From an uncultured Verrucomicrobiae bacterium (GTDB taxonomy: Bacteria; Verrucomicrobiota; Verrucomicrobiia; Limisphaerales; Palsa-1400), in assembly GCA_963702845.1 (NCBI GenBank), contig OY969763.1:1696001-1760000 (forward strand): a stretch of 64,000 bases of DNA, read 5' to 3'. This document shows positions 24,001-39,000 of the stretch, piece by piece (position 1 is the stretch's first letter; each line of letters starts with the position of its first letter). The position numbers were made by a program.

Positions 24001-27000
24001 GCCGAGTATCGTAGCGTCTGCCGGTTTCTTCATGCCACGCTAGAACGGAGCTTAGCAATTCTCGCGGGGTCGCATCGTGCGGTCTCGCGGTGGTCGCGAT
24101 CTCTGACGTGTGCGCGGAAGTCGAGGATGTCGCCGGCGTTCGATGGGTGTTAGCACACGGCCACTTGGGCGAACGGTAAGGCGATACCGCAGGCTTTTGC
24201 GCAGAGGTCAGACCAAATTTGGGAGCGTGCGCATGACTGCGACGCGGCGGAGGCCAGCGAGCTTGCGAGCGTTTCCGAAGCTAGTTGCAGTGATGCGTGA
24301 GCTCTTGGGAAATGCTTTGCCAGTCTCCATAAATTTGAAACGTCGGAACGGAGCGGCAACGGAAGAGCTGATCGGCGGAGTTGTTCGTCGATTGGCTCTG
24401 GAGTGTTAGCGGAGTGGAGCGTTTTTAATTTGTGGAGTCTGGCTCTTCGGGGCTGCGCAAGGGTGAGGACAACGACGGTGCTTGCACGATGGAGCGACAT
24501 CGGCAGCGACAGTCGAGTCGATGGCGTCACTCTTGTGCGGCAGGGGCTACTTGTGAAAGGCAGGGTTTTTTAGTTTGATTCGGCCAAGAACATTGGACCG
24601 GGCCATATTGTTCTCATTGTAAAATGACATTTCCAATGTCTCTTCGTTCGTTGGGCATTCTGGCCAGGTGATGGCAACGATGCCCGGATGGTTCAGCCAT
24701 CGCCAAGCATGCAATTTCCAAGCGGCCATTATTGTGTAGGGCTCCCCGGGATCCTGGACGGCACACCATGTCCGGCGAGAGCGATCGGGCTCGTATGGAT
24801 TTTCGCTGAACCAAAACACTGCCTCACCCGGGCCCGTATGGAATGGAATCGTATTCGTTTGCATGAAGAGTCGTGGGAAAACTTTCGAGCTCAAGAGGCT
24901 CAGCTTTTGCAAGGCGCGCTTTGCTGGGTTTTGGTTCAGCCACATTTGACTGCGGACGTCGTATGTCGCCTCTATTAGTTTGAGCGTCGGTCCGTTAGGG
25001 ATCGTGATCGTTACCTGGTTAAGTTGAGTTAACCACAACAGAGCAGCGATTCCCACGGCGAGGGCGCAAATAGCCACCAGAGTAAATTGGGTTTTGCGCC
25101 GCATGAAAGGAGGTTGGCAGAACAGGGAAAGAGTTCAAGCCGGTGACTAGGTTTAGTCGGAGAACTGAGATTTGAAACGGCTAAGCAGTGAATCGCCTTA
25201 GCGATTCGACTGCGTGCCAGAGTAACCCAGCGTCGGGGTTGGTGGTGTCTTTGGGCGTCTTTGTCTTTGGGGCGAGCCGGTAGGCGAGGCGGTTGTCTTT
25301 ACGGGTTCGCGTTGGCGCGCGTTCCCTAGCGGGGGAGGGGGCGAAGTGTTGCTAGCTATTCCGAGCGCGCCTGCCCCCTCCCCCAGCAGCCCGCGTCGAC
25401 CGCGATTAGCGGAACTGCGACGTGGTCTGGGGGAGGGGGCGCGGGGGCGGGAGCGGGGAGCGCGCGAGGGGGGCAATGCGCTGGTGCGCGAGGGGGAAAA
25501 TGGGCGGGTGCCGCCGGCGTGCGGCGGGGAAATCAAGGCGGCGAGAGACGCTGGATTATATGAGCAAAGCGAACCGATGTTGTCTTTGGTGGCGCTGTCG
25601 GACGGTTGAGGCGTTTGGTTTGGGTGGAGGGCTAACTGATGCCGAAGGTTCGTACCAGCTTGAGCGACTGGCGGCTGCGCTGCTCTGTGCGCGCGAGTCG
25701 CGCCTCCCTATGTGGAAAGCAGCGCAGATGACAGGCGCGCAACTGACTTTGTCTTTGTGGGTCGTCGAGCTGCCAATAAGCGTTCGAATCACCGAGAGCG
25801 GACGCGAACGATTCAGCTCACCGATGGTGGCGGCAAGATGTGCTCACGAGTTGTGCGCCAGAGCTGGCGAAGCACTGGCCACGCACCGCAGGCGACAATG
25901 GCAATACCCGACACTAGGATTACACCGGCCATGTGCAGCCGCCCCGGCTCCAAGGTGCGTCCGGCTGTGTCAAAGCCTCTATAAGCGATCAGACTGCCGG
26001 CCAGGATAGCTATCCGCTGAAAGAAAGCGAATCGACAGAGCACGAGGGCTATCAATGGGACGCAGGTGAAAATGAGAATGCTGGATATTTCCCAATAGGA
26101 TGGAACCCAGCAGGCGTCCATGTAGCCGCAAATAAGATAGGTCGTAAATAGAAACAGAAGAATCGATATTGCCCTCCGAGCAATACCCATGCGGGGAAGA
26201 TCACGCCATCCCAAGGCGAATGCTACAAAATAGGCGATTCCCCCGGAAACCATCTCAATCGATGCGAAGTCCTCCATACCGCGGTAAGCGGCACGAAAGA
26301 AGAGAGCCTGCGACCAAGTCCCAGCGGCAAAGACGAAAAGCGTGGTTGAGTGCCAGAGCCGCTGTTGTGCTTTAGATTGCATTCGTGTCCGCATTTAACG
26401 ACAAGCTGAGCCGCGCCGGACCAAACACCGTGAACCGCGAAGCGGAACTGTCGGCGCAACCGGCGTTGGCTCCAGTGCTGTGTTAGGGCGCTTGGTCATT
26501 GTGGTGGCATCCTCTCAAGGATCTCGACACTCTTAACAATCCGACAAGCATCGTCAGAGTATGAAATTCTTGCTCGGTAATTCTGATAGCCACAACGTCG
26601 CGACGAGCCTTGCAGCCGATAAATCTTACCGCGTGGCTCATCGGATGCCTGCAAAGGTCCGACAATGTTGGAAAACATGATGTGACCGCAATTGTCGCCA
26701 TGCGCTTTCTCGTAATCCCTCATCGCCCGCTTGTAAAATTCCACGTTCTTCTGAAACTGCCTCTCCGCATCGTCCAAACTCGCAATCGCCTGTCCTGCCT
26801 CTGAATTGCGGGAAACTCCAATCTTGGTGACGCCCGACTGGCAGCCAGTGATAACAACTGCGGCGGCGCAAAATGAAAGTAAGATGAACTTGTGGTGCGT
26901 GTTTGACATCGGCCTAACTCTGATTATGCGACACGCTGTCGCGGTCATTTTGATATACGAACGGTTGGTTCATATTGGTTGAGGAGATTATTGTTATGCT

Positions 27001-36000: not shown

Positions 36001-39000
36001 AGATTATGGATCTCATCGCAAGCATCCTGACCTCCAATCTCGCCTTTCTGTAACCGGGATAGGAAGAGGCAAAGTTGTTCTATCTCGTGATTCATCGTTT
36101 ATACCCAGCAATTAATCTGCGCCAACAGTTCGCATATTTTTAATCGGCGAACAAGGGTTTTAGCGCAGGTTTGGTGGCACTTGCTGAAGATGGTTGCTAA
36201 CTCCTTCGTCGCGCCTTAGGCAAAGTGAATCTGCGATTGAGGCGGGTTACCCAGGGTAGAGCCCCGCATCCCTCCTCAACACCTGGGCTGGATGGTTCAA
36301 CCCGCTTTGGGGTTGTCTGAAACCCTGTCAAAACTTTTTTTCGCCAAAAATTTTCGCGTTGGTTCGCGAAGAGTGTACGGAGATTCGCGTTGGTTCGTGT
36401 CGTCTAGTGGCCTTCAAAAGCTTTCTGAAAAACGTGTGCTACAAATGCGCACGTGCCGGTTAACTCTACACACATCAAATATGACGCAAGCGTATCCGCA
36501 TGGATTCGGGCGCGCGATATTTTGGCTGGTGAGGATGCCGTCAAAGCTGCGGGCGAACGTTATCTGCCGAAGTTGGATTCGCAATCGGATGACGAATTCA
36601 AAGCGTATCGCGATCGCGCTTCGTTCTTCAATGCGACGGGCCGCACGCTCGATGGTTACAGCGGGTTAATTTTTCGGCGCGCGCCTTTTGTCAAAATTCC
36701 TGAAGGTCCTTCCGGACGGGCACCATCCGGAGGGGCTCCATCTGCGCTCGCTTCCGCGCTCGGGCAGTTCGTTAACGACTGCGATATGCTGGGCACGTCG
36801 CTGACTGGCTACGCAAAGGATTTGGTCACTGAGGTTATCGGCGTAGGCCGAGCCGGGACGTTGGTTGATTGGGAAGGTGATTTTGAAAACCGCGCCTATG
36901 TCTCACTGTATCAGGCTGAGCAAATCATCAACTGGCGAGTGGAACGTGTAAATGGTCGCAATTTGCCAACGTTGATCGTGTTGTCGGAAGTGTTAGCACA
37001 CGGCCACATTGCAGCCGGCGGCGTTGGCACAGATGAATTTGCTCCTGAGGTTGTGGAGCAGATTCGTGTGCTCAAGTTGGTTGGTAGCAGCGCCACGGGC
37101 CAATCAGAAAACACGGACTCACACGGACGAGCACAGACGAACACGAACAAAAAGAGTGGTAAGCGAGCGATGGCTTATCAGGTTGAGATCTGGCAGGCGT
37201 TGGCAGGTAGCCAGCAGGGGCAGAAGAAAAGTGGCAAGGCGGAATGGACTTTGATTGAGACGCGCACGCCGTTGCGCCTTGGTAAACCGCTGCCGCTGAT
37301 CCCGTTTGTTTTTCATGGACCGCGCAATTCTTTGCCGGCTGTCGATAAGTTGCCGCTGACGGATTTGATCGCGGTGAATCTGGATCACTACCGGCTCAAT
37401 GCCGATTACAAGCACGGCATGCATTTTACCGCATTGCCGACGGCGTGGGTGAGTGGTTTCGATAAAAGTGAGCCGCTGCGCATCGGTTCAAGCACTGCCT
37501 GGCATTCGGAAGCGCCGGGGGCAACGGCTGGCTTCCTGGAATTTACGGGCCAAGGGCTCACCACTTTCGAGCGCGCGATGGATCGTGATGAAAAGCTTTT
37601 GGCGGTGCTTGGTTCGCGGTTGCTGGAGTCGCAGAAGCGCGTTGGTGAAACGGCGCAGGCAATCGAGCTGCGGCAGAGCGGCGAGAACAGCGTGTTGGCG
37701 AATGTGGCGACGAGTTTGAGCGAGTCGCTGACGCAGGTTTTGCGCTGGGTTTATTGGTGGAATTCCACCGAAGAAACTCCCGAGGCGCTGACTGACAATG
37801 TTGTTGTGATGTCGCTGAACACGGATTTCACGACGGCCGGGATGGATAGTAATGAGCTGCGCGAAATTGTCGCGGCTTGGCAATCAGGCGCAATCAGCCA
37901 GGACACGATGCTGGAGCTTTTCCGGCGTGGAGAAATTTTGCCGGATGGGCGCTCGAATGAAGACGAGGTGGCTTTAATTGGGGCGGCCGAAGTTAACCAC
38001 CAAGACACCAAGGCATCAAATAGCGGTGGGAGTGAGTCTCTCAGGCCGAATGTTGGCGTCGCTGGGTGAGTGAGTGGGTCGATTTCTGATTTCCTGCTTC
38101 GTGCAGTGAATGTGATGTGCCAAGCTTCTGGTGTGAGCAGACGGTTGAAAATGTTGGTGGTGGCCGGGTGTGCGTTGGTTGCAGTCGTTGCCGTTTGCTT
38201 TTTCTGCTTTCGCGAAAATGAGCCTTCCTACAATGGGCGGACGTTGAGTGAGTGGTTGGAAGAAATCACGGTTTCGCGTATCGCAGTGACAGAGCAACTC
38301 GAGGAGCAAAAGGCAATCGAAGCCGTGCGCGCCATTGGAACGAACGCTTTGCCATTCTTCGTGAAGTGGAGCGGCTATGGCTCTACTCCTTTGGAAGCGG
38401 ATCTGGTCAATGTTGGCCGCTGCATACCCGGAATACGCAATACTTCTGTTTTCCGCAGAATTGCCTTCCGTCACGTGAAAAAACGCTCTGCAGCTATTAA
38501 GGGATTCAGGATTTTGAAAGACAAAGCCGCGCTCGTGGTGCCGGAACTTATAACTCGATTGAATCGCACAAAAAACTATGAAAAGGCATTGGGCGTTGCG
38601 TCTATGCTCCAATGTGTCGGCGAACCCGCAGTACCCGCTCTTATTAAAGCAGCAGAATCTGGGAGTCTCGAGCACCGCAGTGCAGCAATGTACGCATTGT
38701 CGGGCATGGGAACGTTTGCCTGTGATGCTGTTCCAGCACTTTTGGAAATTGGGCGCAACCTTTCCGATCCAGCACATAACGAGGCTGCCGCGACCGTTGG
38801 GAAAATGGCAGGGTGCTCGGACCAGGCAATTTCCACCTTTTCCAACATGCTGGCGTCCGCCACACCTGGAGACCGAATTTGCGCGCTTATCGGCCTCACA
38901 ACTTTTGTGAGGTGGCAAGGAGCAACTTCTATCCAGCAAACTGTGCCGGCAATTAAACTCGCACTTGAAGACTCCGATATAGGTGTGCGGTATTGGGCAA

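Follow-up and report, generated by a model that had tools for sequence, protein, structure and literature searches.

Integron cassette arrays without an integrase in an uncultured Verrucomicrobiae bacterium, punctuated by putative orphan attI sites that carry the tail of a phosphoketolase gene

How did arrays of small genes in the genome of an uncultured Verrucomicrobiae bacterium come to be punctuated by copies of one repeated unit, and what is this unit? We addressed this question in a window of 64,000 nt (GenBank assembly GCA_963702845.1, contig OY969763.1, positions 1,696,001–1,760,000 of the forward strand; GTDB lineage Bacteria; Verrucomicrobiota; Verrucomicrobiia; Limisphaerales; Palsa-1400), in which the range under study extends from 26382 to 36452, and searched the 6.03-Mb genome as a whole. 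The core repeats, the adjoining fragments of the phosphoketolase gene xfp and the gene content reported in a first-pass annotation were all re-found, and its overall observation stands. Its description of the arrays as integron-like and devoid of a recognizable integrase is right about the integrase, but “like” is too weak a word, since the attC sites had been overlooked. We consider it likely that the arrays are integron cassettes without an integrase (CALINs) with about 30 orphan attI-like units, which would have spread as an ORF-less module together with an xfp tail.

The 117-nt unit was located by its 28-nt core, TATGAACCAACCGTTCGTATATCAAAAT, allowing up to three mismatches in the window and up to four genome-wide. 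The window contains ten matches, all on the minus strand, versus none in 100 shuffles; six lie in the range under study (26947, 29371, 31166, 32257, 32915, and 35211), and the other four, at 4.0–8.9 kb, are more diverged. Across the genome the core search finds 30 copies and a covariance model, R2, finds 29, in agreement with the 29 units counted earlier; they are spread over 13 or so genomic places. As delimited by R2 and by blastn against the unit at the native xfp locus, the six copies occupy 26911–27023 (92% identical to the native unit, R2 score 100.1 bits, ending in GTTAGGC), 29335–29440, 31130–31242, 32224–32335, 32889–32990, and 35178–35286 on the minus strand. The hairpin GCGAC-N5-GTCGC and CATAATCATAGTTAG are present as previously described, along with two direct repeats and two short palindromes. 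It also holds true that a start codon closely follows the unit: for 29 of the 30 copies we found an ORF of 45 aa or more whose start lies at −6 to +18 nt, counted from the 7-nt core, and the gene that each unit heads is different every time.

The ORFs called directly after the units, all on the minus strand, lie at 26496–26909 (unit 1; 137 aa, with a lipoprotein-like N-terminus and no Pfam match), 28926–29318 (unit 2; 130 aa), 31946–32209 (unit 4; 87 aa), 32601–32867 (unit 5; 88 aa), and 34827–35165 (unit 6; 112 aa). A further cassette ORF on this strand, 31400–31867, belongs to the Imm50 family (PF15594, E 1.8e-10); Imm32, Imm53, and Imm33-like matches occur elsewhere and most ORFs match nothing in Pfam, as the first-pass annotation had found. 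The arrays are located downstream of xfp and in elements encoding a terminase, portal, scaffold, and major capsid protein (Pfam), genes that mark these elements as phage-like; five to seven related elements are present in the genome. Here the array lies in the gap between the genes for the terminase large subunit (19658–21052, plus strand; Terminase_6N, with paralogues in sister elements) and the portal protein (DUF4055; 36453–38069, plus strand; Pfam E 1.1e-39), to which it runs antisense. An IS110-family insertion sequence, one of six near-identical copies in the genome, also sits in this array (transposase 33197–34348, plus strand; Transposase_20, E 4.6e-16), where its junction sequences place it within an attC site.

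The attC sites are imperfect palindromes of 91–104 nt with RYYYAAC...GTTRRRY ends that lie 3′ of the small genes. In an alignment of 25 of them, 86.5% of cells pair under a 23-pair structure versus 30–42% when the partner is slid, compensatory changes occur at 14 pairs, and the 5′ arm carries a one-base bulge (one unpaired column). Integron attC sites are roughly 57–141 nt long and have an extrahelical base (EHB), and the palindromes combine this length and bulge with R″ (RYYYAAC), R′ (GTTRRRY), and conservation of structure rather than of sequence. We count attC sites as matches of a covariance model, R1, made in this analysis. R1 matches the genome 54 times; 41 matches fall within 6 kb of a unit, a zone that makes up 3.2% of the genome, and the strand is that of the unit for 40 of the 41. 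Five sites, all on the minus strand, occur in the 26.4–32.6 kb interval: 26393–26488 (59.2 bits), 28880–28973 (48.4 bits), 30820–30918 (61.9 bits), 31859–31951 (93.2 bits), and 32515–32606 (65.3 bits). In the last two, the TAA of R″ is the stop codon of the preceding ORF (32209–31946 and 32867–32601, respectively). Five more (3307–3397, 6424–6524, 6861–6951, 7308–7412, and 8379–8482), likewise minus, belong to a second array next to a WYL regulator (3307–8917; core search, R1, and R2), which also contains the four diverged units (3999–4086, 4660–4747, 7898–7985, and 8830–8917).

That integron integrases act on sites of this type is indicated by related genomes. In the order, 68 of 201 genomes carry a gene for such an integrase, intI, that exceeds the curated cut-off, and in four of five intI-bearing genomes searched with R1 an array of matches adjoins and diverges from intI (G132 C26, G051 C2, G093 C5 and C100, and G039 C45); the fifth, G160, gave no match. 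Because attC sites are present here and R1 arrays lie at bona fide intI genes in relatives, we classify the arrays as CALINs, and to judge by their sequences the small genes are genuine integron cassettes. Several array genes have, instead of an R1 attC, another upstream repeat (U2), and thus not all array genes are classical cassettes.

The genome itself yielded no intI: the best match to the TIGR02249 profile, at 85.9 bits, stays below the cut-off of 265 in this one-contig assembly, beside which a separate plasmid is possible, and tblastn with the IntI proteins of four relatives retrieved only Xer-like genes (28–32% identity), bearing out the earlier report. There is no recombinase gene among the ORFs scanned within or beside the arrays and no significant IntI remnant beside the native unit (best E 2.2). 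The arrays have no integron integrase nearby, as is typical of CALINs, and lack the adjoining intI, with its IntI-specific domain, of a complete integron. Other tyrosine recombinases are encoded at 1686.7 kb and 4815.2 kb.

The terminus of the unit, GTTAGGC, has the form of a GTTRRRY core. Mean column identity across 28 copies stays at 0.95 as far as GTT, falls to 0.54–0.89 over RRRY, and is 0.39 beyond, such that homology stops within 1–4 nt of G|TT. Each unit is followed by 220–330 nt that are unique in the genome and then by an attC, and in 23 of 30 copies an R1 match lies within 1.5 kb downstream. Three loci, at 2198, 5449, and 5709 kb, share their left flank up to ...CATAATCAT[TA]GTTAG and their right flank from TTAGACTGCTTCGC..., and carry unrelated stretches of ~340–460 nt exactly between the two core sites. 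The identity drop, the exchanged loci, and the differing genes all indicate that the unit ends in a core site at which cassettes are exchanged, joined at G|TT as expected of an attI site. The unit itself lacks an attC-type fold: its core has no R″/L″ partner, and the diverged copies have no upstream inverse core.

The unit is not confined to this genome, as had been thought, since R2 finds homologues in seven others among 150 genomes of the order searched. In G018, 22 nt separate the match (C2:6583–6667, E 7e-9) from the start of an intI of full length (275.9 bits); the match is followed by an ORF and then by an R1 attC, which places it between intI and the first cassette. For six of the eight matches outside the present genome, an R1 attC occurs 380–680 nt downstream on the same strand, and weakly for one more; besides G018, homologues head attC arrays in five further genomes. 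Both copies in G111 adjoin a 47-residue remnant of the IntI N-terminus (E 5e-13 and 1e-11), an integron remnant in G075 likewise backs the unit as attI, and G212 and G215 have, as the attI that separates intI from their first cassette, a short form of the unit. R2 had no match, however, in ten genomes of the same family or genus. The IntI of G018 is 77% identical to those of G212 and G210, two genomes of the present family. The unit is homologous to the stretch from intI to the first cassette in integrons of this IntI clade, which is thus also represented in its own family. The attI regions of further integrons from the order have the same kind of ending, GTT[AG]G[GA][CT], with an ATG 6–13 nt beyond it. 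We base the attI identity of the unit on a single complete integron (G018), where both homology and position agree, on the remnants of G111 and G075, and on the short forms of G212 and G215.

Where, then, does the phosphoketolase sequence come from? As reported earlier, xfp is a single gene (C1:2198661–2201072, minus strand, 803 aa). Its 3′ end recurs in antisense, mostly as pieces of 52–184 nt with a few remnants of 35–37 nt, at 80–99% identity to the native gene overall and at 90–99% apart from two longer 81% matches that also span attC. The matching stretch is 75–83% identical in two genomes of the same genus, upholding the view that the fragments were copied from the genome's own xfp. A fragment lies directly upstream of all six units in the range and of 19 of 30 genome-wide (plus one partial case), so that the reported joining of unit and fragment is real, though not a property of every copy. 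As a correction to the first-pass annotation, a joined fragment sits between the attC core of the preceding cassette and the unit, with the stop-codon end facing away from the unit. In the range, blastn places these fragments, all minus, at 27033–27086 (54-nt class, antisense to xfp, 96% identical to native 2198661–2198714, with GTTGGTC plus 5 nt as its left boundary), 29457–29508 and 31252–31305 (54-nt class), 32340–32523 (158-nt class with a 15-nt spacer and TTAGAC, 98% identical to native 2198637–2198818, boundary type A), 32985–33135 (128-nt class with spacer and TTAGAC, adjoining the IS-disrupted attC by junction comparison), and 35281–35408 (128-nt class). The piece at 32340–32523 starts at the core of attC 32515–32606. 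Two further details needed correction: at least six junction types exist, not five, and the 260-nt piece at the upper size limit given earlier (5449368–5449627) adjoins no unit. Its place is downstream of the cassette that comes after unit 5448984, an arrangement shared with the native locus.

The native locus has the order attI-like unit, one cassette, attC, 15 nt, and the convergent xfp 3′ end, and elsewhere one and the same sequence, TTA[AG]AC, 15 nt, and xfp tail, comes after differing attC sites. Among 19 modules anchored by the xfp stop, only nine have a recognizable core site at the left edge (six TTAGAC plus 15 nt, three GTTGGTC plus 5 nt); in the other ten, homology begins a few bases from the stop codon and the sequence upstream is unrelated; integrase-mediated insertion fails to explain their left edge. 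Because the xfp-to-unit junctions show microhomology and no GTT site, these joins probably were not made by an integrase.

The unit would probably act as a local promoter as well, and it holds the hexamers TTGATT-17-AATAGT or AATAAT; against this, a sigma-70 consensus scan flagged only one of the six units in the range and found promoter-like sites no more often in the region than in shuffles. Is it then merely a promoter or 5′ leader, copied by duplication and homologous recombination among the phage-like elements, with an incidental GTTAG and no integrase action at any time? Its constant location 0–18 nt before a start codon in the orientation of the gene, its hexamers, the five to seven related elements available to recombine, the ten modules with no core site on the left, and the microhomology at the junctions, which is typical of illegitimate recombination, would all accord with this explanation. 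We nevertheless regard it as improbable: homologous recombination is not expected to produce an identical break point 30 times, and the abrupt end of homology at G|TT, the three loci that differ solely between two core sites, the homologue at the attI position by intI in G018, and those that head attC arrays in five more genomes all argue against it. The earlier caveat that the repeat may be simply a duplicated promoter loses its force for a unit that ends in an exchange core and is homologous to the G018 stretch.

It is very unlikely, in our estimate, that the unit chiefly serves the phage-like element, with cassette docking secondary, either as an operator for a WYL-type or other regulator or as an opposite-strand terminator or insulator protecting the late operon against the array. 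The hairpin together with ATTTTGA scores as terminator-like on the plus strand in all six units in the range and the 54-nt junction gives a second such hairpin in three copies, but the scan detects consensus matches only; and while the antisense course of the arrays between terminase and portal genes and the repeats and palindromes within the unit would suit such a function, units also occur outside these elements (for example at the native xfp locus here and beside intI or housekeeping genes elsewhere), and the cassette break points would be left unexplained. We find it hardly credible that another kind of cassette system, for example one with a rAID-like or phage-encoded recombinase, merely resembles an integron here, given the R1 arrays at bona fide intI genes in relatives and the match of the unit to the attI region of a real integron. 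The lack of intI, the polymorphic-toxin immunity families in some cassettes, and the two other tyrosine recombinases could be cited in its favor, but the arrays examined have no recombinase gene inside or beside them. The rAID-type arrays of Bacteroidales have a dedicated recombinase gene next to the array, and the proposed likeness to them gains no support, as no recombinase is tied to the present arrays.

An orphan attI multiplied with the xfp tail in tow thus remains our best reading of the repeated unit. A small gene or short run of genes, ending in an attC of the type used by integrons of this order, would have been joined to the orphan attI at its core GTTAGGC. Illegitimate joins, several at microhomologies, would have linked the xfp tail to the DNA immediately ahead of the unit, yielding an ORF-less module of ~190–330 nt (TTAGAC, 15 nt, xfp tail, unit, and final G) with core sites on both sides. 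While an integrase was still available, we infer, this module could have been excised as an attI-bearing circle that integrated into attC sites elsewhere. Wherever it settled, it would have offered cassettes another place to dock and probably supplied a local promoter; the integrase would have been lost later. With the integrase missing here, recombination cannot be demonstrated, and the mechanism is a historical reconstruction throughout.

Comparison with four published accounts sets these arrays among known systems. CALINs were defined as attC clusters without an integron integrase, and attI sites, unknown for most integrons, were not searched for in that survey (Cury et al. 2016, PMC4889954). 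The present arrays resemble the CALINs described there in having at least two attC sites on one strand, no intI nearby or genome-wide, cassettes of mostly unknown function, and an IS inside the array, but they differ in being headed and punctuated by ~30 attI-like copies, most with a scrap of a chromosomal gene. Integron parts flanked by terminase and capsid genes, with an attI at the start of an integrase-less CALIN, have been described in a prophage (2023, PMC9892861). That case shares the phage-like setting and an attI opening a CALIN without its own integrase; however, it has one extra attI and the element keeps an intact IntI, whereas here there is no IntI, ~30 attI-like copies occupy 13 or so places, and most appear to have traveled as a module that took host DNA along.

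Another parallel is offered by the gene-less promoter cassettes of Vibrio superintegrons, which are ordinary cassettes bounded by attC sites and whose promoter activity was measured (Blanco et al. 2023, bioRxiv 10.1101/2023.11.21.568050). Like them, the modules are ORF-less, lie within arrays, and would activate downstream cassettes far from Pc; unlike them, the module ends in an attI-like unit rather than in an attC hairpin of its own, and its promoter is a predicted one. Finally, laboratory work with IntI1 in E. coli showed cassettes inserting into the genome at attG sites and being excised from them imprecisely (Loot et al., bioRxiv 10.1101/2022.09.11.507474). The joins of xfp to the unit differ from the events presented there in being microhomologous and at no GTT site, but in both settings cassettes come to lie beside ordinary chromosomal genes, here the xfp 3′ end, and integrase-linked events alter or carry neighboring DNA.

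The 28-nt core of the repeat unit has 30 matches (at most 4 mismatches) in the one-contig genome of 6,027,559 bases; the window has ten of these, every one on the minus strand (100 shuffled sequences gave none), and six copies fall between window positions 26382 and 36452. Among aligned copies the conserved stretch spans about 117 nt and carries two short palindromes, GAAC-N5-GTTC and GCGAC-N5-GTCGC, then CATAATCATAGTTAG, with a start codon soon after. Across 28 copies, mean column identity is 0.95 through the GTT of the terminal GTTAGGC, then 0.79, 0.89, 0.54 and 0.79 in the four following (RRRY) columns, and 0.39 beyond. 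This fall at GTT is the pattern of a cassette boundary, everything after the G belonging to the next cassette. The 220–330 nt 3′ of each unit recur nowhere else in the genome and have an attC after them, and an attC-type site recognized by our covariance model lies at most 1.5 kb downstream in 23 of the 30 copies. Three loci, the native one (downstream of the phosphoketolase gene xfp) and those at 5449 kb and 5709 kb, share their left flank up to ...CATAATCAT[TA]GTTAG and their right flank from TTAGACTGCTTCGC... into the xfp tail, and between these flanks carry unrelated sequence of about 340–460 nt. The comparison indicates cassette exchange at exactly two G|TT points. We also considered the unit itself as an attC hairpin and rejected this, as no convincing R″/L″ partner is present, nor any in diverged copies or in the homologue from the related genome G136.

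On the plus strand, the native locus reads: unit (2198075–2198189), small gene, a 91-nt imperfect palindrome, 15 nt, and the stop codon of the convergent xfp. The palindrome, GTCTAAC...GTTAGAC (2198555–2198645), has ends that match the inverse core RYYYAAC and the core GTTRRRY of an attC site. Similar elements lie 3′ of many small genes, and 25 of them, 91–104 nt long, were aligned. The structure has 23 pairs and a single unpaired base in its 5′ arm; 86.5% of the alignment's cells pair under it, compared with 30–42% when the partner is slid by 1–3 columns; compensatory changes occur at 14 pairs, and the observed covariation score was reached by none of 500 shuffles. A naive scan for RYYYAAC...GTTRRRY hairpins, which gave many chance matches inside genes, had been superseded by nhmmer and then by a covariance model built on this alignment. 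The model found 54 matches in the genome (E ≤0.01), 41 of them within 6 kb of a unit, a zone covering 3.2% of the genome, and 40 of these 41 on the unit's strand. Five lie in the main array (window 26393, 28880, 30820, 31859 and 32515), where, at two of the five sites, the ORF before the attC stops at the TAA of the R″ box; five more, at 3.3–8.5 kb, belong to a second array (window 3307–8917) that adjoins a WYL regulator and has four diverged units without an xfp fragment. A sister element at 4306–4317 kb has an array at the same place. The first-pass annotation had described a repeated unit joined to xfp 3′ fragments, which is borne out by the 30 core matches and the xfp tail copies upstream; it had also spoken of an integron-like cassette system, where the link to integrons holds but the attC sites after the small genes had been overlooked.

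Not every array gene follows this scheme: some have no site detected by the attC model and a different repeat upstream. This second repeat, U2 (about 165 nt; window 27590–27621, 30214–30245 and 36123–36154, minus strand), has the core TTGTTCGCSGATTAAAAMTATGCGAACTGTTG and a palindrome GTTCGC...GCGAAC and precedes array genes that have no unit. It occurs in 23 copies genome-wide (at most 3 mismatches; none for a reversed control), many of them in the same arrays as the unit and in the terminase-portal gaps of sister elements; U2 and the unit have the pattern GTTCG-N-AAAA-N-GCGA(A)C in common. A second attC-like element, undetected by the attC model, starts with GCCTAACAAGTCGCGAGCCTGTGTGAAACCTCCCG and ends about 70 nt on in GTTGGTC (window 27116–27158 and 31335–31399, minus strand; also about 3540–3600 of locus L053 in the related genome G018). 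Its 5′ half is kept between the two genomes, and in G018 it also follows a cassette. An IS110-family element, present in six copies with 98–100% protein identity, one of them at window 33130–34800 (transposase 33197–34348, plus strand), sits inside attC sites; at three of the six an attC match begins 23 nt past the transposase ORF, and two more show the same junction by eye. We take this arrangement to recall the IS1111-attC group.

Integron integrases occur among relatives: in a sample of 201 genomes of the order, 68 carry an intI gene above the curated TIGR02249 cut-off. In four of five intI-bearing genomes with long contigs, the attC model recovered arrays immediately beside intI on the opposite strand, the canonical geometry of an integron. 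In G132, intI lies at C26:64647–65603 (minus) and the attC matches run from 66089 to 67577 (plus); in G051, intI lies at C2:158590–159540 (plus) and the matches run from 158137 down to 152079 (minus); G093 (C5 and C100) and G039 (C45) have the same layout, and intI-bearing G160 gave no match. The model is not promiscuous, since several family genomes of 4.5–7 Mb had no match at E ≤1e-5. In the present genome no integron integrase was found: no protein scored above 85.9 bits with TIGR02249, whose cut-off is 265, and tblastn with four IntI proteins of relatives returned only two Xer-like genes (28–32% identity). As attC arrays without intI, the arrays fit the definition of CALINs published by Cury et al. 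(2016, PMC4889954).

A covariance model of the unit, applied to 150 other genomes of the order, gave eight matches in seven genomes. A BLAST search with the unit in 200 genomes from the order had returned a single true homologue (G136); the rest needed the covariance model. The homologue in G018 (C2:6583–6667, E 7e-9) has a full-length intI next to it on the opposite strand (5638–6561, 275.9 bits), whose start codon is 22 nt away; the homologue is followed by an ORF and an attC match, and thus occupies the attI position. Two genomes of this bacterium's own family, G212 and G210, have integrases with 77% identity to that of G018, and the G215 integrase has 75%; between intI and the core, G212 and G215 carry a shortened version of the unit that contains one of the two direct repeats. 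Both unit copies in G111 adjoin a remnant of IntI residues 1–47 (E 5e-13 and 1e-11). Six of the eight matches outside this genome have an attC 380–680 nt downstream on the same strand, and one more has one weakly; the homologue on G136:C305 has no attC match downstream. In other integrons of the order, too, the attI region closes with GTT[AG]G[GA][CT], and an ATG comes 6–13 nt later. Because of the G|TT boundary and the homologues beside intI, we conclude, on sequence evidence, that the unit is the probable attI site of the G018-type integrase clade, here orphaned. The unit model found nothing in ten family genomes, two fragmented same-genus assemblies included. Beside the native unit, tblastn with the G018 IntI reached only E 2.2, so that no IntI remnant was detectable; the antisense of the unit's 5′ half resembles IntI N-termini by eye, and we do not claim a remnant there. 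Two homologues without intI each follow a housekeeping gene (L040, G136:C305, 926–1480; L048, G002:C16). Both have the same first-cassette start, GTTAGGCCACACTACGCGC, after the unit homologue, with a short attC-like hairpin next in G136; the arrangement may be a fixed single-cassette locus.

We infer a putative promoter role for the unit from its position, its orientation and the analogy with Pc and with gene-less promoter cassettes. The hexamers TTGATT-17-AATAGT (AATAAT in one copy) lie about 75 nt before the core, and CATAAT lies just before it. A sigma-70 consensus scan flagged one of the six units in the main array, and promoter-like sites in the region numbered 6 against 6.4 expected from shuffles, which is no enrichment. 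On the opposite strand, the hairpin plus ATTTTGA scored as terminator-like in all six copies.

The genome has one xfp gene (C1:2198661–2201072, minus strand, 803 aa). By BLAST of the locus against the genome, its last 52–260 nt, together with a few remnants of 35–37 nt, recur at about 25 places with 80–99% identity, and nearly all tail copies lie directly upstream of a unit. Six different attC sites (177028, 177679, 1728257, 1728915, which is IS-disrupted, 2851043 and 4311589) each precede one and the same series: TTA[AG]AC, 15 nt, xfp tail, unit. Tail and unit thus make up a module that contains no ORF and has core sites at both ends; on its left, the module ends in the sequence that, at the native locus, follows the last attC. 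Three more modules begin with GTTGGTC plus 5 nt, after the second type of attC-like element. Nineteen modules have an xfp stop anchor; in 10 of them the homology starts no more than a few bases from the xfp stop codon, with no core site and unrelated sequence upstream; later deletions or recombination between module copies are a possible cause of these edges.

The interior of xfp is joined to the sequence upstream of the unit in at least six ways, with break points from native 2198711 to 2198819 on the xfp side and from 2198049 to 2198084 on the unit side. Three join types fall in microhomologies (GCG, TTTGTGTT and GTTGCG), and a deletion between GTTGCG repeats would turn one type into another. 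Fragments of the short 54-nt class are 91–96% identical to xfp and those of the longer classes 94–99%; the matching stretch in two same-genus genomes is only 75–83% identical, which places the module events after the split from the same-genus species and would imply a recently active integrase. Protein relatives of xfp are 70–79% identical across many phyla and give only a hint of a planctomycete origin; the sequence downstream of their genes was not informative.

At the join of the 54-nt fragment to the unit a palindrome arises, GTGCTCGCGAGCGCG, followed by TTGTGTT and scored as terminator-like by scan in three copies (window 27027–27042, 29451–29466 and 31246–31261, minus strand); a terminator and a promoter may be paired in this class, the commonest among the modules. 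The antisense of the 158-nt class has a 77-codon open frame that ends with the last 53 xfp codons in frame (window 32234–32452; genome 2187619–2187780 and 4285804–4285956); as the frame is not kept in the 54-nt class, it is probably an accident of the join. Window 35637–35794 duplicates, at 96% identity over 158 nt, the stretch that precedes the native unit (native 2197885–2198042); the xfp fragment of unit 6 lies about 230 nt downstream of it, beyond unrelated sequence.

The window holds a phage-like element, in which the order is WYL regulator, PD-(D/E)XK nuclease, PIF1 helicase, primase-polymerase, terminase, array gap, portal, scaffold and major capsid, and cassettes and units occupy 26–36 kb of the gap between the terminase large subunit (19658–21052) and the portal (36453–38069). 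Related elements lie at 124–145, 2237–2251, 4281–4316 and 4829–4841 kb; the gap is 4–15 kb wide across them and contains units or attC sites at 4284–4295 and 4830–4834 kb. None of the cassettes is present in the same-genus genomes G201 and G202, which share with the window only the terminase-proximal genes (window about 22.7–24.6 kb, 77–79%) and have their own xfp. Among 127 crude array ORFs taken from outside the window set, 12 have a Pfam match (E ≤1e-3); the families include Imm32, Imm53, Imm33-like and a glyoxalase/bleomycin-resistance fold, and one ORF of the main array matches Imm50. Mostly unknown genes are described as typical of cassettes (Cury et al. 2016, PMC4889954). A 95% paralogue, at 1975 kb, of the gene before unit 2 ends 2–4 nt past the stop codon and has no attC.

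These observations can be joined in a tentative scheme. Illegitimate recombination would have produced a tandem duplication of the stretch from the unit to the xfp tail, or a circle of that stretch, and an integrase would then have excised the module and inserted it at attC sites. The xfp tail and unit would so constitute a self-propagating “attI cassette”: ordinary chromosomal DNA joined to an integron docking site with a promoter, lying between two core sites, that would leave as a circle and enter attC sites; we regard this as a possible account, somewhat short of an even chance. If it is true, the attI cassette would document how chromosomal DNA gives rise to new cassette-like units in nature: part of a housekeeping gene beside the last attC of an array is now in a core-bounded mobile module, and at least six junction types record how. 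Long silent arrays, here in phage-like elements, would become many independently expressed and independently loadable mini-integrons. With toxin-immunity genes in arrays at a fixed terminase-portal gap, phage particles could ferry cassettes between cells. The comparison also supplies a probable attI family for a whole IntI clade, in full, short and orphan forms.

Several elements of this picture have precedents. CALINs were already known, and the same paper states that attI is unknown for most integrons and that the origin of new cassettes is unknown (Cury et al. 2016, PMC4889954). Integron parts are on record in phages and prophages (2023, PMC9892861), gene-less promoter-bearing cassettes in Vibrio (Blanco et al. 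2023, bioRxiv 10.1101/2023.11.21.568050), and integrase-linked changes to neighbouring chromosomal DNA in bench work (Loot et al., bioRxiv 10.1101/2022.09.11.507474). The phrases “orphan attI” and “multiple attI” were not found in one search of a library that does not cover subscription journals. The first-pass annotation was right to see kinship with integrons in a genome without an integrase, but the arrays, with their attC sites and attI-like unit, are an integron derivative rather than a new kind of cassette system. What is new is that a probable attI has been multiplied to about 30 copies where no integrase is present, its likely spread as part of a module that lies between core sites and includes a fragment of a chromosomal gene, and a set of junctions that records how the module was made.
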